From IMG/VR virus record IMGVR_UViG_3300025012_000066, positions 11,470 to 75,469 of that record: DNA of 64,000 nt, one strand, 5' to 3'. Origin of the DNA: a virus. Below, piece by piece: positions 17,833 to 52,757 of the stretch (position 1 is its first letter; the number at the start of each line of letters is the position of its first letter). Position numbers and translations under genes: made by a program. The notes beneath the pieces were generated by a model. It had not been told where the DNA came from and did not search any database. It worked only from the letters and a program-made list of their open reading frames with translations.

Positions 17833-19029
17833 ATGAGTAATGGTAATGTATTAGTAGAGTCCCAATCAGCAAGAGAAGAATTAGTAGTCAAGGTAAGTGA
17901 GGAAAGAGTTGGAGAAATCTTAAACAAGGTAAAAGGTTTAGTTTTGTTGGCAGATGATACACACGTGACGACAGAAATGGTTGCGAATTTTTATGAAGTT
18001 GGACTAGAAGCAATAAACAGTTTGATAAAAGATCATCGTAATGAATTAAATACTGATGGGTTAACGGTTTTAGAGGGTGAACAACTAAAGTCCTTTAAGA
18101 ACATCTGTCAAATTGAGTCAAGGGCAAGAGCTTTAACGATTATTCCTCGCAGAGCAATACTTCGTATAGGTATGATTTTAAGAGATAGTATTATCGCTCA
18201 ACAAGTTAGAACTTATTTACTTGATGTTGAAGGTAATACAAAAGTAGAAGATAAACTCATTGCATTAGGACAAGAAACTAACAATATAATATCAATATTA
18301 AATGAAAAGGTAGATAATTTACAATTGAGTAATAATACACTTAGACAAAATAATAGTGTAATTATTACAGACAATGAAGAATTAAAACATAATGTCTTAA
18401 TGTTAATAACTAAAGTTGATGAATTATTAGAGCAACCTCTTTTCAAGATCCACTCTAATTCTAGTAGATTATATGACATGTTAATTATAAATGACTTTAT
18501 GAATGCAATGGAATCATTAGGAATGAAAAAATCATATGATAAACATTACGCTTTGTTTAATAAAGAGTTTGAGAATTGGACAGGAATAAATTTTGGTGAT
18601 AAGAAAATAAATAAAAAACAATATTGGATTTCATATTATGGAATTGAATCAATAAAGCAATTTATCGTTGGTATTGCACAGAAAATAATTATTAAAAATG
18701 ATAATGGATATTGGGTTAGCAAAGCAGGTATTTATAGCAATAAAGTTGAATGGAAGAAAATATTAAATTCCTTTGGCAATAAATGTGCTTATTGCAGTAG
18801 CGAAGAAATAATTCTAGCAGAACATATTGTGCCACAAAGTAGTGAGGGATCAACCGATTGTATTCATAATTTAATTCCAAGTTGTTCTCTTTGTAATGAT
18901 AGAAAAGGTACAATGGATATGAAGTCATGGATAGAACTTAAAAGAAAAGAGGGAATGACTGATGAACAATATGAAAAAATTAGAGATCATTGGAGAAAAT
19001 ATCATATTGTTTTAGATTTAGATATTTAA
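17833..19029 (+). CDS. Antirepressor-like N-terminal domain fused to HNH nuclease
   Basis: VANFYEV...PRRAILRIGMILRDS..A..VRTYLL N-domain; CAYC...EHIVP...NLIPSCSLCNDRKG HNH. Confidence 0.7.
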   Translation: MSNGNVLVESQSAREELVVKVSEERVGEILNKVKGLVLLADDTHVTTEMVANFYEVGLEAINSLIKDHRNELNTDGLTVLEGEQLKSFKNICQIESRARALTIIPRRAILRIGMILRDSIIAQQVRTYLLDVEGNTKVEDKLIALGQETNNIISILNEKVDNLQLSNNTLRQNNSVIITDNEELKHNVLMLITKVDELLEQPLFKIHSNSSRLYDMLIINDFMNAMESLGMKKSYDKHYALFNKEFENWTGINFGDKKINKKQYWISYYGIESIKQFIVGIAQKIIIKNDNGYWVSKAGIYSNKVEWKKILNSFGNKCAYCSSEEIILAEHIVPQSSEGSTDCIHNLIPSCSLCNDRKGTMDMKSWIELKRKEGMTDEQYEKIRDHWRKYHIVLDLDI

Positions 19030-29192: not shown

Positions 29193-30443
29193 TTGGGCAA
29201 AAATTTTACTATTGACTATGAAATTATTAGTAGTTTTAAATTAAAATTGGTGGGAACAGAACCTAAAAACGCAAAACAAAATTTTACAATGGAAGACAAA
29301 GAGGGATATATTTATTTTGGCAATTTAAGTGATATGAAACAAAAATTGAAACAGAATCATTCTCTGAGTAGATTTCATACATCAAATTCGCATACTATAG
29401 ATAATATAAAACTATGGTGCAAATTAAATAGTGTTGAATTGGAATTAGTAAGTACAATATATTTAAACAACAAACAAAAACTGGTGTTCAAAGACAAAGA
29501 AGGATATTATTATCTTTTATCTTTAGATTGCCTGCGAAGAAATTCGACGGCTTCTAGATTTCACAAATCAAACTCATATACAATACAAAATATAAAACTA
29601 TGGTGCAATTTAAATAATAAACCATTTAAATTAATTAGTAAAATATATGTTGGTGCTGATGATAAATTAGAATGGCAATGTTTAAAAGATGGTTGTGGCG
29701 AAATATTCAAAATGAAATGGAGTCATATTTATGATAACCACGGTTGTGGGTTCTGTCATGGCAAACAAATTGGTTTGTCAAATTGTCTTGAAACTTTAAG
29801 ATTTAAACTTTCTAAAGAATGGCATCCTATAAAGAATGGTGATTTAACTCCATTTGATGTAACAGTAAGTAATGGAGAGTATGCTTGGTGGAGTTGTAAA
29901 AAATGTAATCATGAATGGGAAGCAGTTATTGCTAGTAGAAGTAGTGGAATTGGTTGTCCTAGATGTGCTGAAATTAATGCAGAATCTCATTTACAGAAGA
30001 GAACAAGACTATACATAAATGAATGTGGATACGATGTATTACATGAAAAAGAATGCACGTTAAATCCTAAAAATATAATAAACCCTCCTGTAAATATTAT
30101 AAGCAATAAACAGAGAAGAAAGGGGATATTAAGATATGATAATGAAATAATAATTGATAATAGACATCTTTTTATCGAAGTTAACGGACAGCAACATGAT
30201 TTAGAGGATAATATATTTAATATAAAATCTTCTAAAAAGCACAATACCACACCAAAAGAAGAGTTAGAATATCTTAAAGCTAGGGATAAATTTAAAGAAC
30301 AATATGTACATATGCAAGGAGAAAATTATTATTACTTAGTATTGTGGTATTACGATTTTGATAAAGAGGATACATATAAAAAATTGATAGATGATAAGAT
30401 AAATGAGGTATTATCAAACCTTCCACTCCCAAAAGCAATATAG
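29193..30443 (+). CDS. Zinc-ribbon + Vsr-like putative homing endonuclease
   Basis: EWHPIKNG...WWSC..C.HEW...GCPRC; LRYD...IEVNGQQH. Confidence 0.75.
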   Translation: MGKNFTIDYEIISSFKLKLVGTEPKNAKQNFTMEDKEGYIYFGNLSDMKQKLKQNHSLSRFHTSNSHTIDNIKLWCKLNSVELELVSTIYLNNKQKLVFKDKEGYYYLLSLDCLRRNSTASRFHKSNSYTIQNIKLWCNLNNKPFKLISKIYVGADDKLEWQCLKDGCGEIFKMKWSHIYDNHGCGFCHGKQIGLSNCLETLRFKLSKEWHPIKNGDLTPFDVTVSNGEYAWWSCKKCNHEWEAVIASRSSGIGCPRCAEINAESHLQKRTRLYINECGYDVLHEKECTLNPKNIINPPVNIISNKQRRKGILRYDNEIIIDNRHLFIEVNGQQHDLEDNIFNIKSSKKHNTTPKEELEYLKARDKFKEQYVHMQGENYYYLVLWYYDFDKEDTYKKLIDDKINEVLSNLPLPKAI

Positions 30444-36957: not shown

Positions 36958-38478
36958 ATGGGATTGATTAGTACAGAGGTTGAGGTTGGAGTAAATGGCA
37001 AAAATATTGAACAATATGAAGAAAAAGGTTATAAATTTGAAAGATATTATAATGAACATAATAGAAAAATGTTAGTTAGAAAAGGAACAAAGATAAAAGT
37101 TAGAGTAGAAGATTTAGGTGATAAATCTAGTGCGAAGGTAGATGCAGAATGTGATGGCTGTGGTAAAGAATTAAAAGGAATAAGATGGGTAGATTATAAG
37201 GAACAAGTAAAAGAAGATGGAAAATATTTTTGTATAAGATGTGCTAGTGCTGGATTTAAACAATGGATAAGTTTTTATAAATGGTGCTATGATAATTTAC
37301 CAAAAGAATTAGCAGATTATATATTAAGTAGATGGAATAAAGAATTAAATATTGATAAAGATGGCAACCAATTAACTTCTCACGATGTTAGTTATGCTTC
37401 ACAAGGTATAGACAGGAAAGGATATTGGTTTAATTGTTTAGATAACTTTGAACACAAACCAGAACAAAAACATATAAGTTCTTTTACAGGAGGACAAAGA
37501 GGTAGTCTTGATTGTGATATGTGTAACACCATTTTTGTTACTCATCATCACTTAGTACACTTCTTTGTTAATAAAGAGGATGCACATAAATACTCTTTTG
37601 GATCAGGTAAGTATGTATTAGTTAAATGTCCAGACTGTAGTTATGAAAAAAGAATTAAAATTTCCAATTTGGTAAATCACGGGTTTGGTTGTAATCGTTG
37701 CGGAGATGGTGTTAGCTTCTCAGAAAAGGTTACGATAAATGTTTTAGAACAATTACACGAAACATTTATAATTCAATTATCTAAAACTACTTTTAAATGG
37801 TGTAAAGATTATAGATATGATTTATATATAAATAAAATAAATGGGATTTGCGAGGTTATGGGCAACCAACACTACGAAGAAACATATGGCAAATGGGGGA
37901 CATTGCAAGAGATACAAGAAAATGATAGGGACAAAGAAAATTTAGCTAAAGAAAATAATATTACTAATTACATAATTATAGACTGTAGGAGAAGTGAATT
38001 AGAATGGATTAAAAACAATATTATGAATCGTGATCCAAGTCGTCCAGATCAACAATGTCTTGCAGAAGTATTAAACTTTAATGAATCTGATATTGATTGG
38101 TTAAAAGTCTATGAATCAGGGTTCAGAAACTTAGTTAAGACAGCATGTATTTTATGGAATGAAGGACTTAAAAGCACAGTCAAGATAGGGAATAATTTAA
38201 ATTTAAGTAGTGGAGCAATAAGAAATTATCTCAAAAAAGGAACTGAATTAGGATGGTGTTCTTATAATCCAAAAGAAGAGATATGTGAGAAAGTAATATG
38301 CTTGACAACTGGTGAAATATTTAACTCCATACATGAAGCTTCATTGAATGGTAGAGAATCAATTAGACCAAATATTTCTGCTTGTTGTAAAGGAAAACAT
38401 AAATCAGCAGGCAAGTCAATAACTGGCGAGCCGTTGGTTTGGATGTACTATGATAAATATTTAGAAATCAACAAATAA
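36958..38478 (+). CDS. Zinc-ribbon/Vsr-like putative homing endonuclease with NUMOD1-like C-terminus
   Basis: CxxC repeats, YRYD...EVMGNQHY, KVICLTTGEIFNSIHEAS. Confidence 0.75.
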   Translation: MGLISTEVEVGVNGKNIEQYEEKGYKFERYYNEHNRKMLVRKGTKIKVRVEDLGDKSSAKVDAECDGCGKELKGIRWVDYKEQVKEDGKYFCIRCASAGFKQWISFYKWCYDNLPKELADYILSRWNKELNIDKDGNQLTSHDVSYASQGIDRKGYWFNCLDNFEHKPEQKHISSFTGGQRGSLDCDMCNTIFVTHHHLVHFFVNKEDAHKYSFGSGKYVLVKCPDCSYEKRIKISNLVNHGFGCNRCGDGVSFSEKVTINVLEQLHETFIIQLSKTTFKWCKDYRYDLYINKINGICEVMGNQHYEETYGKWGTLQEIQENDRDKENLAKENNITNYIIIDCRRSELEWIKNNIMNRDPSRPDQQCLAEVLNFNESDIDWLKVYESGFRNLVKTACILWNEGLKSTVKIGNNLNLSSGAIRNYLKKGTELGWCSYNPKEEICEKVICLTTGEIFNSIHEASLNGRESIRPNISACCKGKHKSAGKSITGEPLVWMYYDKYLEINK

Positions 38479-38483
38479 TATTA

Positions 38484-38522
38484 TAGAGAGTAACTATAAT
38501 TAATTTTGTAGTTACTCTCTAT
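38484..38522. terminator. Bidirectional terminator
   Basis: TAGAGAGTAACTA / TAGTTACTCTCTA inverted repeat between convergent genes. Confidence 0.7.
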
Positions 38523-38532
38523 TTTTTACAAT

Positions 38533-40059
38533 TTATTCTCTTCCAATTTCCTCTAAATTCTTACCATCAATAACATACTCCTTAAAGACTTTATTGATCC
38601 ATGTTGCACTCTTGCTAGTAGAAATCATCTTATTTCCTTCACGCATAATTTTTCTAAAGATAGGATTTTCTTTTGCTAAAAATTTTCCCCTGAATCCCTT
38701 ATATTCAATGTCGTCATTAAACTTAGAAAGTATATTTAATATCTCTTCTTTGTTTTTTTCTTGTAATAATTTAGAGATGTAGAAATATCCACCCCATGCT
38801 AAAGCCTCCATTGTTAGACTATTTAATCTAAGCAATTTCCTCTCCTCTAAATCTCTACTTGCCATAAATTTAGGGAAGGTTTGAATTAGTGAATCCACAA
38901 AGGTTATGAGATATTTGCTCATTTCTTCAATTTCAGATTTTGTTTGAGGAGAATAATTATCCTTTATATTTTTTGATAAAACTCCAAAAGTAATTATCGA
39001 ATTTGAGTTACTCTTAATAGATGTAGAAATTACCTCTACCTTATCCTTCATATCACTGAATTTGATTATTTCTCTGCACAGTTTGTTTGTATTGTCTTCC
39101 ACGTTTAAATACTCACCGCGACTTTTATTAATTCTCAAACCTTTTAGACAATATTCGCTAAAAAGTGACTTTGCCGAACTATCATCTAACATTTCAATTA
39201 CCACGGATATTTGATATTCAGTAGGATTTGGTACTGACTCTGGATTTTTGCGATATGCCTTTAAAATCTTCGAAAAGGCAGCCAATCTATGTTGACCATC
39301 AAGTATTTCGAGTTTCGTAGTAATTGGAGCAGTTATTGTGTGAGAATCTTCATCATACTCTATTGAATTTTCTTTATCTGGGTTTAAATTAAGCACGATA
39401 AAACCGCCATGCATTTGATCCTTAGTTAGACTATCATATATTTGATTAATATGGGATACTGAACGTACAGCAACCAATTCATTCTTACTATTCTTTTTCC
39501 ATCCTCGATTTAATTCTCCATTGTATTGAATAATATTACGATCTAAAAGATTAGCCAATACGTCTGAACTCACCACGCATTGATATTTTGCCAATTCACC
39601 ATTTCGATAAATTTCAACAACGTTTTCAAATGTGTAACTGTCAGAATTATTCATTTGACTCAATCTTTTTCTAACCTCTTTCTTAGTTTTTTGTATATCT
39701 TTTTGCTTTTGAATTTCATTAAAATTTTCATTAAATTCATTTTTTGGGATCTGATTATCTTCATTTGATTCATTTGCTTTTACTATTTCACTCATACTTG
39801 GGAATAGAGGTTTAATAGTTTCAGATTCAATCTCTTGTTGATTATTATTAACCTTTTCTTCTTCCCAAACTCCTGTGTCTAAAGTAGATGCAGTTTCTTC
39901 TTTTGCTTTCTCTAAATTTTTAATCATTTGAGAATCATCTTCGCCTTGAGTCATATCATCCTTAACAATTTCCACCTGAGTAAACCTATTCTTCTTCGCC
40001 ATATCGGTGTTTTCCTCCATTTTCTCATCTACTAATTTATTCACCATATTAATAATCAT
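38533..40059 (-). CDS. DGQHR-domain (ParB/DndB superfamily) protein
   Basis: ILDGQHRL motif, upstream NRG; acidic low-complexity N-terminus. Confidence 0.75.
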   Translation of the reverse strand: MIINMVNKLVDEKMEENTDMAKKNRFTQVEIVKDDMTQGEDDSQMIKNLEKAKEETASTLDTGVWEEEKVNNNQQEIESETIKPLFPSMSEIVKANESNEDNQIPKNEFNENFNEIQKQKDIQKTKKEVRKRLSQMNNSDSYTFENVVEIYRNGELAKYQCVVSSDVLANLLDRNIIQYNGELNRGWKKNSKNELVAVRSVSHINQIYDSLTKDQMHGGFIVLNLNPDKENSIEYDEDSHTITAPITTKLEILDGQHRLAAFSKILKAYRKNPESVPNPTEYQISVVIEMLDDSSAKSLFSEYCLKGLRINKSRGEYLNVEDNTNKLCREIIKFSDMKDKVEVISTSIKSNSNSIITFGVLSKNIKDNYSPQTKSEIEEMSKYLITFVDSLIQTFPKFMASRDLEERKLLRLNSLTMEALAWGGYFYISKLLQEKNKEEILNILSKFNDDIEYKGFRGKFLAKENPIFRKIMREGNKMISTSKSATWINKVFKEYVIDGKNLEEIGRE

Positions 40060-40166
40060 AATAATAACCTCATTTCATCGTATTTTGATATTATCACAAT
40101 TCTATACAATTTGAAAGAGTTCTATACCAAAAACATTAAAAATTATTAAAAAAAGAAAAGAGTAAA

Positions 40167-42497
40167 TCAAAACTTACTCTCCTTTTTACTCTTAAATCTC
40201 TTCTCAGGTGGTAATTGCATCTTGCAAATAAATGGCACAGCATTTTCCCCACCACTTCTAATAATATTAATACTATGCCAACGTTTCAACTTTAAGCAAT
40301 CCTCCAAAGTAAACGGATAAACCTCTTCCTTTAAACTTATCCAAGTTAATTTACTTGTAGGATAAATATGATAATGTGGCAAAGCATTTCGAATTGCTTT
40401 CTGTAAATTATTGGGAATTTGTTCCCAATAATGGAACGTCCAAAAGTACCCCACAAGCCACTTTCGACTCTCGACAGCAGCACCCTCCCATATTGAAGCA
40501 CTACGAAGATATTGATGTGGCTCGTCTAACATGATATAGAAAGGAAATTCTGCTTCAGATCCATATATTTTCTTTCTAAGTCTCATAGCAATATCAATTT
40601 TGGAACATAGTAAATTGACAATTACATCTATTGCCGATTTATCTAAGTCGTCACTAGGAACATCAAATACAATAATTTTCTTTTGTGACATTAATTGAAC
40701 CATGTCTAAACTATTATTAGAATTTACACAATTTGCTAAGTGGGGATCTGATAATATCCTATTCAATCTATTGTAAATAGGAGATAATATCTTACCCTTC
40801 ATACCGTCACCCATACCTTCAAATTCTTTTAAAGTTGCCTTATTTAATCCTTCATCCATACCATCAATAACTTGTTTAAGATAAGTTTTATCATTAAAAA
40901 TCTTGATAATTTCTGATACTTTACCAGTAGTCATTCCAATTATAGATGCTCTTAAAAATCTTTCAGTTTGTCCAGTTGTATCGTCACTTACACCAAAAAA
41001 ATCTACGGCAGTTCCAGCTAATCTTGCCTTTGTACTAGAATCATGTAATGTCTCACACCAATCTAATGAAAATGCTTGTTGTCCTAAATCTATTCTAATA
41101 AAATCTTCCTTCTTTACAATTCCTGCATTAACAGCACATTGTATTTGATCTCCAATTTCACGTTTATTAGGATCAATTGCCAAACCTCCATATCCCTTTA
41201 AATAAGCCCCTATGAGCCAATTTGAAGCCAATCCTTTTGTCTTACCCTGCCCCATACCTCCGATCCCTACATTCGGCAAGCAAGCTTCATCAGGATCATT
41301 TACAGGTTGATATACTTTAACAGTTTGTCCTTTAAATGTTGCATCACCTAATTCAATCCCTTTTGATTCATTTAAGAATTTATTGTTTACTTCAACTTCT
41401 GCTAATTCAACTCTTTCAACTTCAGGATATTTTTCTTGAAGTTCTCTACCAGGGATTTGAACAATTTTAGATATTTCTGCTGATGACATAATATTAAAAT
41501 TTAGCTTAACTCTTGGTGGTTTATGAGTATTTATAATTCTTAAAACTTCATTTGCTTTTTTACCTTTTAATTGACAAGGTGCTAATTCATTGTCTAAGCT
41601 TATGTCATGAAAACTACTTGCTATTGTCCTTGCTATTGTATTTGCCCTTGCAGATTCATCTGATTCAACAATAACCCAAAGATAAGTTCTTATAGATGAT
41701 TTATTTCTTTTTTCTTTTGTAGAATTTGATAAATTTTCTATTGTGTACTTTTGGCCTTCCGGATCAGATGGTTTTTTAGCGTATATATTTTGACTATTTC
41801 CATCACTAATTAACTCACTCAAACCAATAATTACCTCTCTAATTAACTCTGTTAATCCGATAGCAATTGTAAAGGTAATATTTTTAAATGATTGATTCCA
41901 TTTTCTCGGAGCATTTCCACTTCTTAATTTATCCCACGCTTCATCTAATTCGCCTTGCCATGCTAATTGATATATTGGATCAAGATAGCAAAATAATCTT
42001 GCCTTTTCATTTTCTCCTATTAATCTTCCTGCTTCAATTAATGATATAAGTGGAAGATTGTCCTTTGAATCAGTGTGTAGTGAATATAGATCGTGCTTAC
42101 TGTAAACTAATTCATAAACAACAGATTTGTTTGAATTAAATTCTTCTGCATTATCTACTTTGTCGATTGTGGTCTTGTCCCATATAGATGTTAATCTTCT
42201 GTAAATAAGAGGTGCAATAGTTTCAGGCACACCAATGTAAAATGTTACATTGTTTTCTTTGAAATCAATTTCAAATGATGCCCTTTCCTGCACTTTATAT
42301 CCTCTTGGTAAGATTGCTTGTCTTATAATTCTATCAATAGGTAGTTTAAATTGATCTGCAATAGTTTTAACAAAATCTTCTGTACGATAATTTCTAGCAG
42401 AAGAGTCAGGTTTAATTTTAAATCTTACATATTTAGGATTAACAATATTAAACCAATTAATATTTTTAATAGTAGTAATTTTTTCAGCAAAAATCAT
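40167..42497 (-). CDS. VirB4/HerA/FtsK-like P-loop ATPase
   Basis: Walker A GGMGQGKT, AIDP, Walker B IMLDEPHQ, ESRK; ATGA-coupled to the M23 gene. Confidence 0.75.
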   Translation of the reverse strand: MIFAEKITTIKNINWFNIVNPKYVRFKIKPDSSARNYRTEDFVKTIADQFKLPIDRIIRQAILPRGYKVQERASFEIDFKENNVTFYIGVPETIAPLIYRRLTSIWDKTTIDKVDNAEEFNSNKSVVYELVYSKHDLYSLHTDSKDNLPLISLIEAGRLIGENEKARLFCYLDPIYQLAWQGELDEAWDKLRSGNAPRKWNQSFKNITFTIAIGLTELIREVIIGLSELISDGNSQNIYAKKPSDPEGQKYTIENLSNSTKEKRNKSSIRTYLWVIVESDESARANTIARTIASSFHDISLDNELAPCQLKGKKANEVLRIINTHKPPRVKLNFNIMSSAEISKIVQIPGRELQEKYPEVERVELAEVEVNNKFLNESKGIELGDATFKGQTVKVYQPVNDPDEACLPNVGIGGMGQGKTKGLASNWLIGAYLKGYGGLAIDPNKREIGDQIQCAVNAGIVKKEDFIRIDLGQQAFSLDWCETLHDSSTKARLAGTAVDFFGVSDDTTGQTERFLRASIIGMTTGKVSEIIKIFNDKTYLKQVIDGMDEGLNKATLKEFEGMGDGMKGKILSPIYNRLNRILSDPHLANCVNSNNSLDMVQLMSQKKIIVFDVPSDDLDKSAIDVIVNLLCSKIDIAMRLRKKIYGSEAEFPFYIMLDEPHQYLRSASIWEGAAVESRKWLVGYFWTFHYWEQIPNNLQKAIRNALPHYHIYPTSKLTWISLKEEVYPFTLEDCLKLKRWHSINIIRSGGENAVPFICKMQLPPEKRFKSKKESKF

Positions 42498-43141
42498 TGT
42501 ATGGTCACTCCTAACATTTTTAATATGATATAAAATGCAAAAGTCCAATAAACTCCTTTTACAGCTCTTTTAGAACCGAATATTGCAAGTAAAGCTAATA
42601 TCATAGCAACTAATATTGCATAATCACTGTTTTGAACTATCCAATGGAATAAATCAGATATAAATGATAAAAACTTGTTAAATATACTTTGTTTTGCTTC
42701 ATCTAATAAATCCGTACCAGAAGTAGTTAATACATGCCATGTTTTTTCCCAAAATCCTGTTTCAGTTGCTTTTTGAAGATAATTGCTTGGGTCTTGATAT
42801 TGACCATTTGATGATATTAGCCCAACGTGGATATGCGGGCCTGTACTTCTTCCAGAATTTCCAGTTAATCCTAATGTTTCTCCCACTTTAACATGTTGAC
42901 CATAAGTTACATTCACTTGAGATAAATGACCATAAACCAATTCTTTGCCATTATCTAACTTAACTCCAATGCCATTTCCAATAATATTATCGTGAATTAT
43001 CCTGCTAATGATTCCATCCGTTAAAGATTGGGCAGGAGTAGACATAGGACTTCCAATATCTACTCCAGAATGAGGAATCTTGTGAACACTATCAATTGCT
43101 CCAAATTTTGCTGTGATAGGATATTGCAAGAATTTAATCAT
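42494..43141 (-). CDS. M23 (LytM) peptidase with C-terminal TM helices
   Basis: HSGVD, YGHLS, GRSTGPHIH; hydrophobic C-terminus. Confidence 0.88.
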   Translation of the reverse strand: MIKFLQYPITAKFGAIDSVHKIPHSGVDIGSPMSTPAQSLTDGIISRIIHDNIIGNGIGVKLDNGKELVYGHLSQVNVTYGQHVKVGETLGLTGNSGRSTGPHIHVGLISSNGQYQDPSNYLQKATETGFWEKTWHVLTTSGTDLLDEAKQSIFNKFLSFISDLFHWIVQNSDYAILVAMILALLAIFGSKRAVKGVYWTFAFYIILKMLGVTIQ

Positions 43142-43155
43142 AATGATTATCTCCT

Positions 43156-43632
43156 TTATCTAGGAATTGCTATTTGAACTGAACTAAAAGCATTATGAAT
43201 TGCAACAAAAAATGTAGGAATAATGAACATACTTATATAACCAATGACCGCAAATTTTAATTTCTGCTTCCATCCAGGAGAACCAATAATCATTTCTACC
43301 ATTCCCCATATTGATACAATAATTCCTACTGGTAATGCTAAATCTTGAACCATTGTGATAATAGGCCATAATGAAACAATTAGATTTGCTGTGCCAACTG
43401 GATTACCTACTGAATTTGTTAATGTTGGTACAGGTGAAACTACTGCTAAAACAGGTGATGCTAAATTAATTACACTTAAAACAACAGAGGTTGGAACTAG
43501 ATAATTTTTGAATAGTTTTTCTACTTTTTTACCTACTTCAATCCATTGATTTACTAATACTTCTTTTTCAAGTGTTACCAATGGATGAACACATGGAGGA
43601 TTTAAAACAGATCCATTAATTCTAACAATCAT
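43156..43632 (-). CDS. VirB2/TrbC pilin-like membrane protein
   Basis: Signal-like segment ending PVLA, two TM helices separated by GWKQKLKFAVIG; RBS AAAGGAGG before ATG 43632. Confidence 0.55.
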   Translation of the reverse strand: MIVRINGSVLNPPCVHPLVTLEKEVLVNQWIEVGKKVEKLFKNYLVPTSVVLSVINLASPVLAVVSPVPTLTNSVGNPVGTANLIVSLWPIITMVQDLALPVGIIVSIWGMVEMIIGSPGWKQKLKFAVIGYISMFIIPTFFVAIHNAFSSVQIAIPR

Positions 43633-43654
43633 TTTTAATAAACCTCCTTTAGAT

Positions 43655-43684
43655 GTATAAGTATTTGAATTTGCGGTAATACTA
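43655..43684 (+). promoter_or_regulatory. Sporulation sigma-F-type promoter
   Basis: GTATA-15 bp-GGTAATACTA fits the B. subtilis sigma-F consensus GYATA-N15-GGnnAnAnTA. Confidence 0.65.
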
Positions 43685-43711
43685 AAGTCATATTGGAAGG
43701 AGATGATTTTC

Positions 43712-43789
43712 ATGACACCTGCACTCATAAAAATACTCATTGGATTTGGTTTAGTAGCATTCCATTATTTACCGATAGTCTCCAAATAG
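43712..43789 (+). CDS. 25-aa hydrophobic peptide (not in ORF track)
   Basis: RBS GAAGGAG; MTPALIKILIGFGLVAFHYLPIVSK; has its own promoter and terminator. Confidence 0.6.
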   Translation: MTPALIKILIGFGLVAFHYLPIVSK

Positions 43790-43868
43790 GTAGTACTTGC
43801 ATAATAAAATATATGTGTGCATAAATATGATTCATCATATTAAATGAGTTAAGTCTACCCTTTACCAA

Positions 43869-43894
43869 ATCCCCACCATTGGGGATATTTTTTT
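43869..43894 (+). terminator. Intrinsic terminator
   Basis: ATCCCCA-ccat-TGGGGAT followed by A and T7. Confidence 0.7.
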
Positions 43895-43896
43895 GT

Positions 43897-44121
43897 TCAT
43901 TTTCTCCTTTTAATTGCTTCTTTAGTAAGTCTAATAATTTCAGGCATACTTTTGAACATTGATTTCAACATAAAGAATGCTCCAAATAAAAACATTATAC
44001 AACCTAATAATCCCACTAAAGAACCTACAATTAATGAAAATGGAGTAATTAATTCAGAACCAATACCAATAATAAAAGTGCCAGTAACCATAGTCAACAT
44101 TGCTTTTGTATCTTTTCTCAT
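43897..44121 (-). CDS. Small two-TM membrane protein
   Basis: Two hydrophobic helices, RBS AAGGAGG. Confidence 0.65.
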   Translation of the reverse strand: MRKDTKAMLTMVTGTFIIGIGSELITPFSLIVGSLVGLLGCIMFLFGAFFMLKSMFKSMPEIIRLTKEAIKRRK

Positions 44122-44384
44122 AATAATTCCTCCTTAAAACTTGATTTAAAATCCTTAATAATTTCAATTCCTTTTTCTGAAATATAATAGCAGAAGGCAT
44201 TCCTTTCTTTATATCCAGAAAAAATAAGCTTTAATTGATTAAGATGTCCAATTATATTCCTAAGTCTAAAATAATTAAGATTTAATAGAGTTGATAATTT
44301 CTTTATAGAGATAGAATTCATTTGATTATTGAATTGATTATCAAATAAATACAGCAAAACATCTACTTCAATCTTACTTAACAT
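44118..44384 (-). CDS. Winged-helix DNA-binding protein
   Basis: ISIKKLS...RLRNIIGHL...YYISEKG. Confidence 0.6.
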   Translation of the reverse strand: MLSKIEVDVLLYLFDNQFNNQMNSISIKKLSTLLNLNYFRLRNIIGHLNQLKLIFSGYKERNAFCYYISEKGIEIIKDFKSSFKEELL

Positions 44385-44508
44385 TTAATTAATTCACCTC
44401 ACCTTCCCTAATGTATATTAAGCAATGCTTATTCTATATGTATAGTAATAAATGGGAATTTAAAATTTCTCCCAAAATAAAAACTCTGATTTCTCAGGAC
44501 TTAATTTA

Positions 44509-44586
44509 TACCCCATACTATCCCTTATCTTTTCCTACATATTCTCCAATTACCCCATACAATACTACAATTATTCCTACATACTC
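44509..44586. repeat. parC-like repeats downstream of parR
   Basis: TACCCCATAC at 44509 and 44551; TTCCTACATA at 44532 and 44574 (42-bp period). Confidence 0.6.
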
Positions 44587-44626
44587 ACTAAACAAAAAAA
44601 GAAGACACAACCATTATAGTTGCGTC

Positions 44627-44890
44627 TCAAATCATCATATCATCAAGTTCATCCTTTTCTGCTCTCTTCCTTTCGACTACTTTAGTCTGTATCAAAACAT
44701 CCTCCTTTATTCCTTCCTTAGTCTCTTTAACTACGACCCCATCATTAATTAATTGCTTCTTAACCCATTTACTAAAATTTCTAATCTCATTTGCCTTTTC
44801 ATAAAGTAATAATTCATCTTCATCATCTAGGTTAAAATAAACACCTTTTCTTTTTACTCTGCCTGTGAGTTCGCCTGTGCTTTTGCCCAT
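44627..44890 (-). CDS. ParR-like adaptor (ribbon-helix-helix-like)
   Basis: Small ORF overlapping the parM end; RKGVYFNL...NFSKWVKKQL, acidic tail. Confidence 0.65.
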   Translation of the reverse strand: MGKSTGELTGRVKRKGVYFNLDDEDELLLYEKANEIRNFSKWVKKQLINDGVVVKETKEGIKEDVLIQTKVVERKRAEKDELDDMMI

Positions 44891-45705
44891 TTTTTCACGC
44901 CCATCCTGTGATAACCTTCTACGTTAGCATAGACACAATTATCTAAAACTGAACAATTAGGATAATATTTCTTAAATAAATCACCAAATTGCAATGCTCC
45001 TCCACCAGTTAATAAAACTCGATCAGAAATTTCGTAGTCTGTGAATCTCTGACTAAGTTCAGCTACAATCTTTCCAACATATTGAGAATTATCAATTTGA
45101 TTTCCTTTTAGTTTAATGGAACCGAAAGCCAGTGTTCCAGAATCCCTTGTTACAAATTTACTCCCATTCATAGAACTATAATTTACAGTTAAACTTCCTA
45201 AGTCAATTATTCTTTTCTTACCAATTGATAAATTTTCATCTTTCGATAATGCATATTGAAAGCTGGCAACAGATTCAGGTATAATATTTAGATTGTTTAT
45301 ACAGAATTTTTTATGTTCTCCATTAATTTGAATATCGTATTTGCCAAATAATAAATTTTCCAATGCAGATTTTGTTGCGGCATTGAACTGATCAACTGGT
45401 ACACCTGTGCAAATGTACAAATCACTGTCATCTTCCTCTAAGGATAGGCCGACCCCAGTTAAAAAAAGCACCCTTGTCTGTTCATGAATCTTTGATGCTG
45501 TACTCATCTCAATTGGAGCAAATGATTCATCGAGTGCTAATTGTCCTACAAAATGTTTTTCTTTATCGTTGATAATTACTTCATATTCTTCATTATCAGA
45601 TATTTCCCTATGATGCCAATCTCCAACTACAGACCTGAATGATTGATTGTTTAATAACTTTACAGTGTTGCGTCCACAGTCGATTGGAATGATCTGAATT
45701 GCCAT
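44854..45705 (-). CDS. parM: Actin-like partition ATPase ParM/StbA
   Basis: IDCGRNTVK, TGVP, PES, IIDLGSLTVN, LTGGGA. Confidence 0.88.
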   Translation of the reverse strand: MAIQIIPIDCGRNTVKLLNNQSFRSVVGDWHHREISDNEEYEVIINDKEKHFVGQLALDESFAPIEMSTASKIHEQTRVLFLTGVGLSLEEDDSDLYICTGVPVDQFNAATKSALENLLFGKYDIQINGEHKKFCINNLNIIPESVASFQYALSKDENLSIGKKRIIDLGSLTVNYSSMNGSKFVTRDSGTLAFGSIKLKGNQIDNSQYVGKIVAELSQRFTDYEISDRVLLTGGGALQFGDLFKKYYPNCSVLDNCVYANVEGYHRMGVKKWAKAQANSQAE

Positions 45706-45726
45706 AAATATTCCTCCTTCATGTTA

Positions 45727-45790
45727 TACCCCACTATAAAGTATGGGGTATTTACCTTTATTCTGATTATATCGCATTACCCCATACTTT
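45727..45790. repeat. parC-like repeats upstream of parM
   Basis: TACCCCAC 45727, inverted GTATGGGGTA 45741, TACCCCATAC 45778. Confidence 0.6.
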
Positions 45791-45894
45791 ACAATGCTTT
45801 TTCATTTGCGGTATTGATAAAATACAAAGGCCCATTGCTATATTTATTGTGTAGCAATGGGCTTATTTTTCTTTTTATTATACGGCCTGAATAC

Positions 45895-45974
45895 TTATCA
45901 ACATGTGGATAAATTTTGTCGAGGACTATCTATCCACAAAGGAAATTATGATATATACTATTACCTGTGGATAA
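45895..45974. promoter_or_regulatory. DnaA-box cluster (candidate origin)
   Basis: TGTGGATAA perfect at 45904 and 45966; one-mismatch boxes at 45895 and 45930. Confidence 0.75.
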
Positions 45975-46290
45975 TTTTTATTCTTAGAAGGAGAATAGTG
46001 TCGAGGTGTCGAATATATAACTCAATCAAATTAACTCAATAAATGCGAAAACACCTGACCTCTTGCAAAGATCAAGTGTTTTCTGAGCATAATGTTCTGA
46101 ACAACATTAAGCTTTTAAGTTCTTGAGATTATTGTACCCTAAGTTTAAATTAGAAGCAAGTATAAACTTAGAGAATAATTTAACAAAGAATGTAAAAGGT
46201 TAGTAGTTGGTGCAGAAATGTACATGCTACTAACTTTTTTATTGAGTCAATATTAATAAAATTATTCAAATTGAATAGGTAATGAAAAAA

Positions 46291-46423
46291 TCTCCTAGTT
46301 AGTGCTTGAGTTGTGGCGACACATCACTAAACTAGGAGACCCCTGAAGACTCGTATTGAATTCTTTAAGTCATTTTATCATGATTTTAAAAATTTGTAAA
46401 CAGTCTTCAGCATCGCTACGCTC
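46291..46423 (+). promoter_or_regulatory. Structured rep leader (plasmid copy-control-like)
   Basis: Stem TCTCCTAGTTAGTG/CACTAAACTAGGAGA with loop TGTGGCGA complementary to TCGCTAC (46413); second stem CTGAAGACT/AGTCTTCAG. Confidence 0.55.
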
Positions 46424-46457
46424 ATTTTTTGAAAAATGCTGAAAGAAGGTTTTATCA

Positions 46458-47012
46458 ATGAAAGCACAACAAACTGTATTTGATTTTATTAAAGAAACAA
46501 TGGGACATAGCACATTATTGGCTATATCTGGAGATATGATGCCATTTGCTAATAATTCTTTTGATAATGCAAGATTTCTAAGTCAGTTGCTTTTCTGGGT
46601 TGATGATAGAAATGAATGGACTCCAATTCAAATGAAGGAATGGAAAGATGTAGCTCATTTATCTAGATATGCTATAGAAAAAGCAAGATATTATTTCTAC
46701 AGTATTGGAGTTCTAGAATATCGTGTTAAAAAAGACAGTCAGGGAAATCCTGTTTCTCATTATCGTTTAGACTTTAAAGCATTGATGAATAAGATGAATA
46801 AGTTCTTCAAAGATAATAAACCAAAGCAAATTGTAACTTTTTCTGGTTTTGCTGATTGCTTCAAAAAGAAAAGTGAACAAAAACAGACTGATATTCCTAC
46901 AAACACTTATCCTCAATATAAAGAAAAATTAGAGAGTAAAAATATAGGACAATCTTCTAAAAATGAAACCAGAGAGGAAAGAAAAAAGAGATTAGAGAGA
47001 CTTTACCTCTGA
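46458..47012 (+). CDS. Replication initiator-like wHTH protein
   Basis: FLSQLLFW...EW....LSR...G.LE...GNPVSHYRLD pattern of phage/plasmid Rep N-domains. Confidence 0.65.
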   Translation: MKAQQTVFDFIKETMGHSTLLAISGDMMPFANNSFDNARFLSQLLFWVDDRNEWTPIQMKEWKDVAHLSRYAIEKARYYFYSIGVLEYRVKKDSQGNPVSHYRLDFKALMNKMNKFFKDNKPKQIVTFSGFADCFKKKSEQKQTDIPTNTYPQYKEKLESKNIGQSSKNETREERKKRLERLYL

Positions 47013-47086
47013 TCTAATCTCTTCAGCCTCCATTAATTAAATAAATCACATTTTAAAAAAGAGAAGTTTATGATACTCTAGCTTTG

Positions 47087-47440
47087 CTATGCCTTAACAA
47101 TCTCAACATAAAACTCACCACCATCAAAATTTCCATCCATACGACCCACCAATTCTGGCCCATTCTCATATTTAGCAGATTCATAATTACATCCGCAATC
47201 ACATTTTAAATCACTAACCATAATTAATTCACCACATTCTGCATCAGGAAACATTTCTTTAATTGCAGTATTATATGTCTCAAATACTTCTTTCTTTGCT
47301 TCCGAGATTGTTTTAAAAAATGTAGGTTTAGCGAAAACACCTGATTTTTCTTCTTCAAATAGATTGATACCAAATCTAACTTGATATTTAATATTCTTAT
47401 TATTTTTGTTTTTATTACAGAATTGTTTAATCTTTGCCAT
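47087..47440 (-). CDS. Hypothetical protein
   Basis: ORF with RBS. Confidence 0.5.
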   Translation of the reverse strand: MAKIKQFCNKNKNNKNIKYQVRFGINLFEEEKSGVFAKPTFFKTISEAKKEVFETYNTAIKEMFPDAECGELIMVSDLKCDCGCNYESAKYENGPELVGRMDGNFDGGEFYVEIVKA

Positions 47441-47683
47441 TATATCTTCCTTCTTTCTTTAATTCTTCTTTTAAATCATTCCAACTTTTCTTAGGTATTT
47501 TTCCTTCTCTTATTAATTTCATTTCTTTTAACGATTGTTCTAAAGATTCAGATGGAGTACAATATCTTTTTTTCATCTTTAGTATCATCCATATGAAAAC
47601 ATGTTTCACAAGTTAATCCATATTCTTTTGAAGAACAATTATTTATATCATAATCCACAGGACATTTAAATTTAATCCTCTCC

Positions 47684-49093: not shown

Positions 49094-49753
49094 TTATTCT
49101 CCTTTCAATAACATTTCTTTAGTAGGATATTTATTACAACCATTTTTCTCATTGCAATATCCTAACACTTCACACTTTACTTTTGCATAACTAATAATTT
49201 TTTCCCATTCACTATCCAAATCACTAACAATACTTTTTAATTCCTTAATAAATTTTCTAAATTCCCAATACGCTCTAGTACATTCCCTAACTTCTACCAT
49301 ATGCAAAATTGCTCTTGCGTTGATTTTTAAAACCATTTTGCTTTCCATTCCTAATGGGAGAATATTAGCAATATCTTCTTTAGGAATACACAAGTCTTCT
49401 AATTTTTTATAAGTATCCATAATATTTGACATGATATTTTGATATATTTCTAATGCTAAATTATTTTTTGTAATAGATTGTGGAATAATATAGTTAAATT
49501 CTCCATATTTAATATATCTTGTACTGGCTTGAAGTCTTGACGTTCCTGATATATGAGTATAAATTTCACGGATAACCCTTGCTGAATATCCACTTATTTG
49601 TAAAGTGACATCTGCGTACTCTAAGACTCTACCATGATTTGATTCAATACAGTCAATTCCTATTTGTGGAGAAGGATTTGAATCCCAACAGTAACTAGCA
49701 CACTCCCCCATTAATGATAATGGATTTTTTGTATAACTAATAACTTTAATCAA
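49094..49753 (-). CDS. thyX: Flavin-dependent thymidylate synthase
   Basis: HGRVLEY, SARVIRE..TH, QASTRY, KEDIANILP, NAR, R.CTRAYWE. Confidence 0.85.
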   Translation of the reverse strand: MIKVISYTKNPLSLMGECASYCWDSNPSPQIGIDCIESNHGRVLEYADVTLQISGYSARVIREIYTHISGTSRLQASTRYIKYGEFNYIIPQSITKNNLALEIYQNIMSNIMDTYKKLEDLCIPKEDIANILPLGMESKMVLKINARAILHMVEVRECTRAYWEFRKFIKELKSIVSDLDSEWEKIISYAKVKCEVLGYCNEKNGCNKYPTKEMLLKGE

Positions 49754-51983: not shown

Positions 51984-52757
51984 TTATCTTTCATTTATCC
52001 ATCTCTCACAAAGACATTTACCACTTTTATAACTATCGCAAGGGATTACATTGCCATTCGATAAAACAACTAGCTTTTCTGTTCCTGCGGTACACTTGCC
52101 TTCTGAAAATGGTAACCCCAAACGAATTTTGTCTTGATATTTGAGTTGTAATTCATTGATTATCTTATTCAACTCTTCTTTATTTGGCAATAAAAATTCT
52201 TTGTCCGTTCCTCTACCGTGAAGAATGATTTTTAATAAACTAATCTTATTAACTCCAATGTTTACTAGTTCTATTACTGTATCAATTAATGTATGAAGAT
52301 TTAATGACATTGGAACAATATGTACTTCTGTATTTAAACCAATATCTAAGCAAAGTTTAATATTATTTAAAATAATATCGTGAGCATCTTTTTCTCCAAC
52401 TATTTGATCATATATGTCATTTTGATGACTGTAATAAGAAATTATAATATAGTCCAGGTCAATTATTTTTAGTGCTTTTAATTTTGTGTTTATATCGTCT
52501 ACATAAGTTGAGGTATATAACCGAACTTTAATTTTCTCACCTTTTAACCATTGAATAATACTTATAAAATTATCAGTTAATAATGGTTCTCCTCCACTTA
52601 AATTTACATATTGCGGTTTGTATTTTTGAACTATATTTTTAATTGTATTGATATCAAGAAATTCTTTTCCGTTAATATTTGAATTATTAGAACAATGAAC
52701 ACAGTCTAATTTACATTTATTTGTTAATTCAAAGGTTATTTCATTTATTTCGATCAA
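51984..52757 (-). CDS. Radical SAM protein with short Twitch/SPASM-like tail
   Basis: CKLDCVHC, SGGEP, CTAG...NGNVIPC. Confidence 0.88.
   Translation of the reverse strand: MIEINEITFELTNKCKLDCVHCSNNSNINGKEFLDINTIKNIVQKYKPQYVNLSGGEPLLTDNFISIIQWLKGEKIKVRLYTSTYVDDINTKLKALKIIDLDYIIISYYSHQNDIYDQIVGEKDAHDIILNNIKLCLDIGLNTEVHIVPMSLNLHTLIDTVIELVNIGVNKISLLKIILHGRGTDKEFLLPNKEELNKIINELQLKYQDKIRLGLPFSEGKCTAGTEKLVVLSNGNVIPCDSYKSGKCLCERWINER

Follow-up and report, generated by a model that had tools for sequence, protein, structure and literature searches.

The DNA analyzed here is a 64-kb stretch (hereafter the window) comprising bases 11470–75469 of a single 75,469-bp virus record (IMG/VR IMGVR_UViG_3300025012_000066), and our subject is a gene cluster at positions 40167–44384 of the window that encodes, among other proteins, a VirB4-type ATPase, a pilin-like membrane protein and an M23 peptidase. 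IMG/VR classes the parent record as linear, and its completeness according to CheckV is about 45%. The window, whose DNA is contained in groundwater metagenomes, has a G+C content of about 29% and encodes tail proteins, many HNH/homing endonucleases, an anaerobic ribonucleotide reductase and a RecD-like helicase. The nearest relatives of the locus are Clostridium sp. metagenome bins and viral contigs, and a megablast search of the phage collection with the cassette region produced no match. We read the parent element as a large Clostridium phage with a plasmid-type ParMR partition system, that is, a phage-plasmid.

A first interpretation of this DNA, made from its letters only (the sequence-only reading), had described the cluster as a minimal secretion- or conjugation-like module. 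All the genes that it named are present on the minus strand where it had placed them; they encode a winged helix-turn-helix (wHTH) protein, a protein with two transmembrane (TM) segments (the 2-TM protein), the pilin-like protein, the M23 peptidase, the ATPase and a DGQHR/DndB-like protein. The partial translational coupling that it reported was also found: ATGA overlaps join the wHTH gene to the 2-TM gene and the M23 gene to the ATPase gene, where the M23 stop codon lies over the ATPase start. The cluster is the Clostridium copy of an accessory cassette common to phages and plasmids of endospore-forming Bacillota (genes 31–32 in SPP1; 29.1 and 27.9–27.3 in SPO1).

Local profiles served to compare gene neighborhoods at about 25 loci, which come from phages, prophages, plasmids and viral contigs. 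A narrow alignment of the closest homologs yielded 10 genome loci and 11 viral loci, and the window together with loci L022, L023 and L024 is referred to below as the Clostridium clade. The order RHH (ribbon-helix-helix), VirB2-like, VirB4-like recurs in almost all of the loci. The conserved core consists of a ParR-like RHH protein, a TrbC/VirB2-type protein and a full-length VirB4-type ATPase.

The RHH protein of the window (87 aa, 44627–44890, minus strand) was recognized by its conserved RHH-type motif. It has this motif, KxVxFN..D.D...L..HA..R.NFS.YVK.LIQ.DM, in common with SPP1 gp31 and with the corresponding proteins of TP-84, vB_BpsM-61, 055SW001 and LY5, all of which are encoded directly upstream of the pilin-like gene. 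The local RHH profile matches SPP1 gp31 at 3.7e-9, and the motif is visible in the family alignment (A9). The minus-strand parR gene is followed by a good terminator (44602–44628). The adjoining minus-strand gene (44854–45705) encodes a ParM-like actin-like protein (ALP), which matches ALP_N at 7.6e-21 (75 bits) and phrog_691 at 1.2e-46; the module thus lies beside ParMR, as had been noted from the sequence. An ALP gene also adjoins the cassette in the rest of the Clostridium clade, in L025 (ATPase 51% identical), in a clade of Bacillus prophages (37%), in SPO1 (gp27.9) and in CP-51 (gp96), and one lies nearby in the Clostridium phage phiCp-D. ParM adjacency therefore recurs in no fewer than five diverged clades and extends to lytic phages (SPO1 and CP-51). 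SPP1, TP-84 and 055SW001 retain the core without ParM. Since the ParR-like RHH protein is the most constant neighbor across lineages, the link between the cassette and ParMR is not accidental.

The VirB4-type ATPase and its partners

The 776-aa ATPase (40167–42497, minus strand) belongs to the family of SPP1 gp32 and SPO1 gp27.4 and matches phrog_5156 with an E-value of 2.5e-167. The family forms 880 clusters at 50% identity, and its conservation spans the full length of the protein. The ATPase had no Pfam or NCBIfam match at E-values up to 0.1, and by sequence it does not fall into the Pfam families CagE_TrbE_VirB or AAA_10. A phmmer search of PDB returned nothing, and a profile search returned P-loop-level matches plus HerA and DptH only. 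In phiCp-D the homolog (L036:5986–8401) is annotated as two open reading frames (ORFs) of 179 and 631 aa, being either split or frameshifted.

We modeled the ATPase with AlphaFold2 (AF2) from an alignment of 77 homologs and obtained a predicted local distance difference test score (pLDDT) of 92. The protein has a Walker A motif (GGMGQGKT) at residue 413 and a Walker B motif (YIMLDE) at residue 654. Among the 77 homologs, Lys 419 and Glu 659 are invariant, and Gly 418 and Asp 658 are at least 90% conserved. The modeled C-terminal domain (residues 369–769) superimposes on VirB4 (4ag5) with a Z-score of 27.6 and a root-mean-square deviation (rmsd) of 3.3 over 334 aligned residues. The scores for TrwB (27.0), DndH-C (26.9) and HerA (26.2) amount to a tie, and the model places the C-terminal motor in the FtsK/HerA/VirB4 class with no finer assignment.

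The N-terminal domain (residues 17–366) was folded alone (pLDDT 91) and searched against 48,161 PDB representative chains. There was a single standout, TrwK/VirB4 of R388 (7o42_A; Z-score 16.4, rmsd 3.6 Å, 246 aligned residues), and the second-ranked match reached a Z-score of only 8.9. The top 10 Foldseek matches were all TrwK, and HerA chains were absent from the list of N-terminal-domain matches. Since the N-terminal domain matches TrwK/VirB4 and the C-terminal motor matches VirB4, the ATPase, as modeled, has the two-domain architecture of VirB4. The sequence-only reading had called the protein VirB4/HerA/FtsK-like; that class holds, and the N-terminal domain refines it to VirB4-type. According to the models, the kinship with VirB4 holds at the level of fold and profile only.

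The nearest cellular paralogs of the motor domain are ATPases of 830–870 aa with matches to TrwB_AAD_bind, TraG-D_C and DUF87. Their genes (loci L017 and L018) adjoin Replic_Relax, and once also TcpC, in integrative elements. Full-length matches to the ATPase numbered 4 among 401 sampled genomes of the phylum to which locus L007 belongs.

The gene that precedes the M23 and ATPase genes encodes a 158-aa pilin-type membrane protein of the SPP1 gp31.1 family (43156–43632, minus strand). Its ORF had been listed as 43156–43740, which is over-long; the start with a Shine–Dalgarno (SD) sequence is the ATG at 43632 (AAAGGAGG, 8-nt gap). The protein has a leader-like hydrophobic segment followed by two TM helices. 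Searched against Pfam, it matched nothing at E-values up to 1 and had no direct match to PF04956 or PF18895. Profile comparison places it with VirB2-like proteins: in hhalign, its family (A5) matched the family that contains the TrbC/VirB2 protein of pCLK, so annotated by the Prokaryotic Genome Annotation Pipeline (PGAP), with a probability of 99.2% and an E-value of 5e-20. Other members of the matched family are the proteins of TP-84 and vB_BpsM-61, SPP1 gp31.1 and SPO1 gp29.1. Seven relatives match Pfam TrbC (PF04956) or T4SS_pilin (PF18895) with E-values between 1.8e-6 and 3e-3; the best is the pCLK protein, which matches TrbC at 1.8e-6, above the gathering score, and the others range from 6e-5 to 3e-3. 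Moreover, a membrane protein of about 125–170 aa precedes the ATPase gene in every relative, and the 158-aa protein aligns with these. The profile evidence therefore supports its designation as TrbC/VirB2-like, as the sequence-only reading had proposed, with the start corrected.

Members of the Bacillus prophage clade have a further gene between parR and the pilin-like gene (L030:6270–6551, L029:6280–6561 and L032:6279–6560). It encodes a conserved protein of 93 aa, with two TM helices and without a Pfam match, which could be a VirB3-like partner. Small 2-TM proteins screened as VirB3 equivalents had no Pfam match.

The remaining protein of the operon is a 215-aa M23 (LytM-type) metallo-endopeptidase (42494–43141, minus strand), which matches PF01551 at 1.4e-20 (73.7 bits; cut-off 28.7) and phrog_7767 at 3.8e-34. 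Its zinc ligands, HSGVD at residue 24 and HIH at residue 103, are intact, and residues 176–194 are predicted to anchor the C-terminus in the membrane, so that the earlier description of a membrane-anchored M23 peptidase with intact ligands was accurate. Judged by these residues, the enzyme should be catalytically intact. It has no N-terminal signal peptide; toward the C-terminus there may be a single TM helix or a pair separated by a basic loop. M23 genes are found in the Clostridium clade (L022–L024) and in some Bacillus phages, such as YungSlug, only.

We next consider what a type IV secretion system (T4SS) would need in addition. In the 75.5-kb contig, about 45% complete, Replic_Relax, FtsK/SpoIIIE, AAA_10, VirD4, MOB relaxase, TcpC and TrbL were all unmatched (no Pfam hits to PF02534, PF03432, PF13814, PF12642, PF04610, PF01580 or PF12846). 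Because the contig is that incomplete, the absence of these parts leans on three 100%-complete relatives, namely two genomes of 67.8 kb and 59.2 kb with terminal repeats, and TP-84. They too lack VirD4, relaxase, TcpC, TrbL and Replic_Relax (PF02534, PF03432, PF13814, PF12642 and PF04610). As complete relatives are devoid of a coupling protein, a relaxase, VirB6 and VirB8, the cassette is not a conjugation system; the results support a minimal T4SS-derived module and not a complete T4SS, which agrees with what the sequence-only reading had said of the window.

The comparison with T4SSs such as that of R388 has two sides. Shared with them are the two-domain VirB4 fold, a pilin-type protein that combines a leader with two TM helices, and an accessory cell-wall hydrolase, a role played there by VirB1. 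However, the cassette lacks VirB3, VirB6, VirB8, VirB9, VirB10, VirB11, VirD4 and a relaxase, its hydrolase is an M23 endopeptidase instead of a lytic transglycosylase, its ATPase, unlike T4SS VirB4, has no sequence-level Pfam membership, and its carriers are tailed phages. Small sets of this kind have a parallel in the archaeal Ced/Ted DNA-import systems, in which a VirB2-like pilin and small membrane proteins work with a VirB4/HerA-like ATPase and neither a relaxase nor a coupling protein takes part. Unlike the cassette, Ced is encoded on the chromosome, has a polytopic protein of the VirB6 type and brings DNA from one cell into another.

The cassette has already been noticed in the literature, in SPP1 and SPO1, but never characterized. 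SPP1 shares with the window the ATPase family (tblastn with gene 32: 3e-34 over 97% of the length; PHROG 5156), the pilin-like (gp31.1) and RHH (gp31) families and the gene order. It differs in having neither ParM nor M23, and a second small membrane protein, gp31.2, stands in place of M23. Godinho et al. (2018; PMC6316719) described a resemblance to TrwB, VirB4 and FtsK for SPP1 gp32, confined to its C-terminal part, found ORF 31.2 and gene 32 dispensable for lytic growth, and proposed a translocon of gp32 with gp31.1 and gp31.2, its role being unknown. Their paper makes no mention of the VirB4-type N-terminal domain, the link to RHH proteins, the micro-ORF described below or the host restriction. 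For B. pumilus phages, TrbC/VirB2, Replic_Relax, FtsK/SpoIIIE and RHH genes have been listed (PMC9658697).

SPO1 (gp29.1, gp27.9–27.3) and CP-51 (gp97–gp90) resemble the window in that pilin-like, ParM-like and small membrane proteins and a VirB4-like ATPase are encoded in one block. Unlike the window element, they are lytic myoviruses, have no M23 and carry a Replic_Relax gene after the ATPase gene, where the window has none. In SPO1 this is gp27.3 (L004:6217–7041), directly 3′ of the ATPase gene, which matches Replic_Relax (PF13814) at 2.9e-12. CP-51 gp90 (L034:8696–9547), annotated as 'replication initiation by nicking', matches a local profile that was partly seeded with gp90 itself. Homologous ATPases are also encoded on large plasmids of C. 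botulinum/sporogenes (e.g. pCLK) and on plasmids of the B. cereus group, with about 25% identity over 98% of the length. There, the ATPase gene directly follows a gene that PGAP annotates as TrbC/VirB2, and the surroundings contain no further T4SS genes. These plasmids differ from the window in offering a plasmid and not a phage context, and neither M23 nor ParMR was seen in the stretch examined.

A divergent micro-ORF and the host range

The plus strand carries a sigma-F-type promoter consensus (GTATA-N15-GGTAATACTA) at 43655–43684, antisense to the module. The whole window has just two matches to the strict sigma-F consensus when both strands are counted; the present one is retained in L022, L023 and L024 although the spacer varies. 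The patterns used for sigma-F and sigma-G are those of B. subtilis. The sequence-only reading had placed a sigma-F promoter inside the module; the motif is real, but its orientation is the opposite one, ahead of a 25-aa micro-ORF, and so it does not drive the module.

The divergent micro-ORF (43712–43789, plus strand), recognized from its translation and SD sequence, encodes a single hydrophobic helix (MTPALIKILIGFGLVAFHYLPIVSK). Its SD sequence, GGAAGGAG, lies at 43695–43702, about 10 nt after the sigma-F motif and 9 nt before the ORF. Further downstream, a hairpin followed by a T-run is predicted at 43869–43896 on the plus strand, in the orientation of an intrinsic terminator for the micro-ORF transcript, and pairing in its stem is preserved through changes in L022–L024. 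The region of about 265 nt 5′ of the pilin-like gene is conserved in the three relatives even where the upstream genes differ. We considered a structured RNA as an explanation and rejected it, as the region folds no better than shuffled sequences on either strand (z about -0.8). For this reason the region is read as promoter, micro-ORF and terminator.

Judged by its substitutions, the micro-ORF evolves like coding sequence. From L024 the window differs by 7/1/10 nucleotides at the three codon positions, 7 of the codon changes being synonymous and 6 conservative; from L023 it differs by 3 changes, all of them synonymous. L025 (MSPIIKIIIGAALILFSRLPL) and L007 (MIPLILITGGVALIAFSQLPL) encode clearly related peptides at the equivalent position and in the same orientation. 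More generally, divergent hydrophobic micro-ORFs of 17–31 codons with an SD sequence lie upstream of the pilin-like gene in 21 of 24 loci, including SPP1, TP-84, 055SW001, pCLK and phiCp-D.

A full sigma-F/G consensus precedes the micro-ORF in 5 of 18 loci, which represent four independent lineages (the Clostridium clade, L025, L007 and phiCp-D). With a background of 0.0014 per 70-nt window, the chance of such a count is of the order of 1e-8 by our rough binomial estimate. The phiCp-D micro-ORF has a full sigma-G-type consensus (GAATA-N17-CATACTA) and that of pCLK a near sigma-F motif; the CATACTA -10 element also occurs in SPP1, where it accompanies the divergent hydrophobic micro-ORF shared with the window, and in TP-84 and vB_BpsM-61. 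Strict sigma-E, sigma-K and sigma-A patterns were found 5′ of the pilin-like gene in none of 18 lineages.

Between the micro-ORF stop and the terminator hairpin lies a perfect palindrome, ATATGATTCATCATAT (43825–43840), within a 28-nt block that is invariant across the four Clostridium-clade sequences. Going by its sequence, it could be an operator site. The promoter of the pilin–M23–ATPase operon may lie in this stretch, in which case the two transcripts would be mutually antisense. The complete 67.8-kb relative (G404, the record of L025) encodes two sigma-70-family factors (49474–49695 and 52285–52509).

We then asked which hosts carry the cassette. Two distant queries were searched against phage records; the window ATPase matched 91 records and SPP1 gp32 matched 107. 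The hosts belong to Bacillus, Geobacillus, Lysinibacillus, Brevibacillus, Alicyclobacillus, Terrisporobacter and Clostridium, with one exception labelled Microcystis, and the 50 plasmid matches come from Clostridium, Bacillus and Alicyclobacillus. Microcystis apart, all of these host genera form endospores. The exception, Microcystis phage MaeS (MT362618.1, about 80 kb), has a gp32 match like those of the Basilisk- and Staley-type Bacillus phages of about 80 kb, over the same stretch and at the same identity, and its host label may be wrong. The restriction is seen even within Herelleviridae: the family profile matches SPO1 at 5.9e-204, and the same profile found no homolog in Listeria phage A511, Enterococcus phage phiEF24C or Lactobacillus phage LP65. 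In Staphylococcus phage K it found no homolog either, only a 12.8-bit, 60-residue P-loop match. The cassette is therefore restricted to elements of endospore formers, the doubtful Microcystis record apart.

Possible roles of the cassette

It is possible, and we tentatively prefer this reading, that the cassette secures the phage genome in the developing spore (virospore formation) and does not serve lytic growth. The link to sporulation is indirectly supported, because the host range is limited to endospore formers and a forespore-type promoter with its micro-ORF is conserved. The sequence-only reading had made the same link from the sigma-F motif; the host range and the conserved promoter speak for it. 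The identity of the parts is much firmer than their connection with sporulation. Spore entrapment of virulent Bacillus phages has been on record since the 1960s and, to our knowledge, the route of phage DNA into the forespore, or its retention there, is understood only for phi29. A 2026 study showed that SPO1 forms virospores and suggested its ParM as a possible factor (PMC12991052); this is gp27.9, whose gene is part of the SPO1 cassette.

How such a device might work can be outlined from its parts. A VirB4 hexamer at the membrane would use ATP to extract pilin-like subunits or assemble them into a short structure spanning the wall or the septum, the ATPase acting on the pilin-like protein as VirB4 does on VirB2. 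The M23 enzyme would open the peptidoglycan locally, and the RHH protein, together with ParM where present, would bring the DNA of the element to the site. The micropeptide would be made only in the forespore, and the machine would therefore be asymmetric across the sporulation septum. In its most specific form, this would be a split machine, with VirB2/VirB4 (and here M23) on the mother-cell side and the sigma-F/G micropeptide on the forespore side, which, with the ParR-like adaptor and ParM, delivers the viral genome to the forespore or retains it there. Such a machine would supply the missing mechanism behind virospores, in which lytic phages are entrapped. We regard this specific arrangement as rather unlikely.

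The SpoIIIA–SpoIIQ channel comes to mind as a model, since its parts, too, are made on opposite sides of the sporulation septum and include an ATPase, a LytM-fold protein and membrane proteins. The parallel with SpoIIQ and SpoIIIAA drawn in the sequence-only reading is one of analogy and not of homology. The window M23 protein scores 36.9 bits with the SpoIIQ model (NF053738), whose cut-off is 250, and unlike SpoIIQ it keeps its catalytic residues. SpoIIIAA is a VirB11/GspE-type ATPase (not compared here), whereas the ATPase of the window is VirB4-type.

Several points weigh against a role in spore entrapment. Nothing in our analysis shows the translocation of DNA, across a septum or from cell to cell, that the sequence-only reading had envisaged. 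We also know of no VirB4 protein that pumps DNA. The absence of sigma-E, sigma-K and sigma-A patterns 5′ of the pilin-like gene means that the main operon is not visibly sporulation-specific. Promoters of the forespore type could be read outside sporulation by phage sigma factors such as the two in G404, and the sigma-F/G consensus itself comes from work on B. subtilis. Most lineages have no M23, and the host restriction could stem from shared phage gene pools instead of function. Finally, the SPP1 cassette genes are early genes, transcribed from PE5 in vegetative infection (PMC6316719).

A first alternative is that the cassette is an envelope device of the vegetative infected cell. VirB2/VirB4 (with M23 where present) would then build a surface or membrane structure early in infection, for superinfection exclusion, secretion of early proteins or wall remodeling, and sporulation would play no special part. 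The position of the cassette among early and replication genes in every phage examined fits this view, as does an operon without a preceding sigma-E or sigma-K motif. On the other hand, it leaves unexplained why the cassette is absent from phages of non-sporulating Bacillota, even within Herelleviridae, and it accounts neither for the conserved forespore-type promoter and micro-ORF nor for the constant RHH/ParM neighbors. On balance we consider it unlikely.

A second alternative is that the cassette tethers DNA to the membrane. Phage or plasmid DNA bound by the ParR-like protein would dock on the ATPase and the pilin-like protein and so be fixed at the membrane or pole for segregation and replication, with no transport taking place. 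RHH, VirB2-like and VirB4-like genes stay together even without ParM, ParM is adjacent in many clades, and in the window a DnaA-box cluster and a rep-like gene lie beside parM. However, a VirB4 motor, a leader-bearing pilin-like protein and a wall hydrolase exceed what a tether needs, and tethering alone leaves the host restriction and the forespore-type promoter unexplained. We therefore think such a role quite unlikely by itself; polar tethering could, however, serve spore capture, and would then merge with the entrapment reading.

It is improbable that the minimal VirB2/VirB4 set spreads phage-plasmid DNA to neighboring cells in the manner of conjugation, possibly borrowing parts from the host or a co-resident element. 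In its favor, the proteins belong to the T4SS type, the ATPase gene of SPO1 and CP-51 is directly followed by one for a Replic_Relax protein, the nearest cellular paralogs of the motor adjoin Replic_Relax and TcpC in integrative elements, and the gene pair stands alone on large C. botulinum plasmids. Yet searches of the contig and of the three complete relatives turned up neither a coupling protein or relaxase nor VirB6 or VirB8, and strictly lytic phages keep the cassette. That a HerA/DndH-like ATPase works with the DGQHR/DndB-like protein in defense or counter-defense against other mobile elements is very improbable indeed: the motor ties with the DndH-C and HerA folds (Z-scores 26–27) and the DndB-like gene follows the ATPase gene, but the N-terminal domain is VirB4-type and not of HerA's N-terminal form, the best PADLOC hit for the ATPase is only at 0.003, and the DGQHR gene is a variable flank.

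If the cassette does secure phage genomes in spores, VirB2/VirB4 parts would have a new use there, detached from the remainder of a secretion system. It would also give a reason for the presence of this gene set in well over a hundred Bacillus and Clostridium phages and plasmids. Since SPP1 can do without ORF 31.2 and gene 32, an entrapment function could be put to a direct test in that phage. Should the sporulation link fail, the cassette would still be a widespread minimal VirB2/VirB4 module.

Variable flanks and a probable replication origin

Three genes that the sequence-only reading had listed in or next to the module turned out to be variable flanks. The wHTH protein (88 aa, 44118–44384, minus strand) matches Pfam HTH_45 at 8.8e-5, under the family cut-off. 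The 2-TM protein (74 aa, 43897–44121, minus strand) has two hydrophobic segments and no family match, and the 508-aa DGQHR/DndB-like protein (38533–40059, minus strand) matches PF14072 at 8.3e-22. In the Clostridium clade, identity is 73–97% for the pilin-like, M23 and ATPase proteins but only 32–40% for the wHTH proteins of the same relatives. The 2-TM gene is present in L023 only (80% identity) and absent from L022 and L024/L006. DGQHR proteins are 36–60% identical in relatives whose ATPases are 85–97% identical. In L022, the DGQHR/DndB-like protein (L022:5451–6941) is 36% identical beside a 97%-identical ATPase, which marks a sharp mosaic boundary after the ATPase gene, as expected of a swappable defense or counter-defense gene. 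Outside the Clostridium clade DGQHR is absent, and unrelated genes are found there, encoding a serine recombinase, a PIN protein, AimR, a subtilase or Replic_Relax. Judged from identity and presence in relatives, the wHTH, 2-TM and DGQHR genes lie outside the conserved unit.

On the other side of parMR, the only two perfect DnaA boxes of the window (TTATCCACA) and two boxes with one mismatch fall within 80 bp (45895–45974). The cluster sits between parM and a rep-like gene (46458–47012), and from its sequence it is probably the plasmid-prophage origin. A consensus Spo0A box is present at 46007. Spo0A boxes are not enriched in the module: there is one within the ATPase gene and one near the DnaA boxes. 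An Rfam scan of 38000–47500 found nothing relevant. Large HNH/homing-endonuclease genes are located at 17833–19029, 29193–30443 and 36958–38478, among the structural and early regions.

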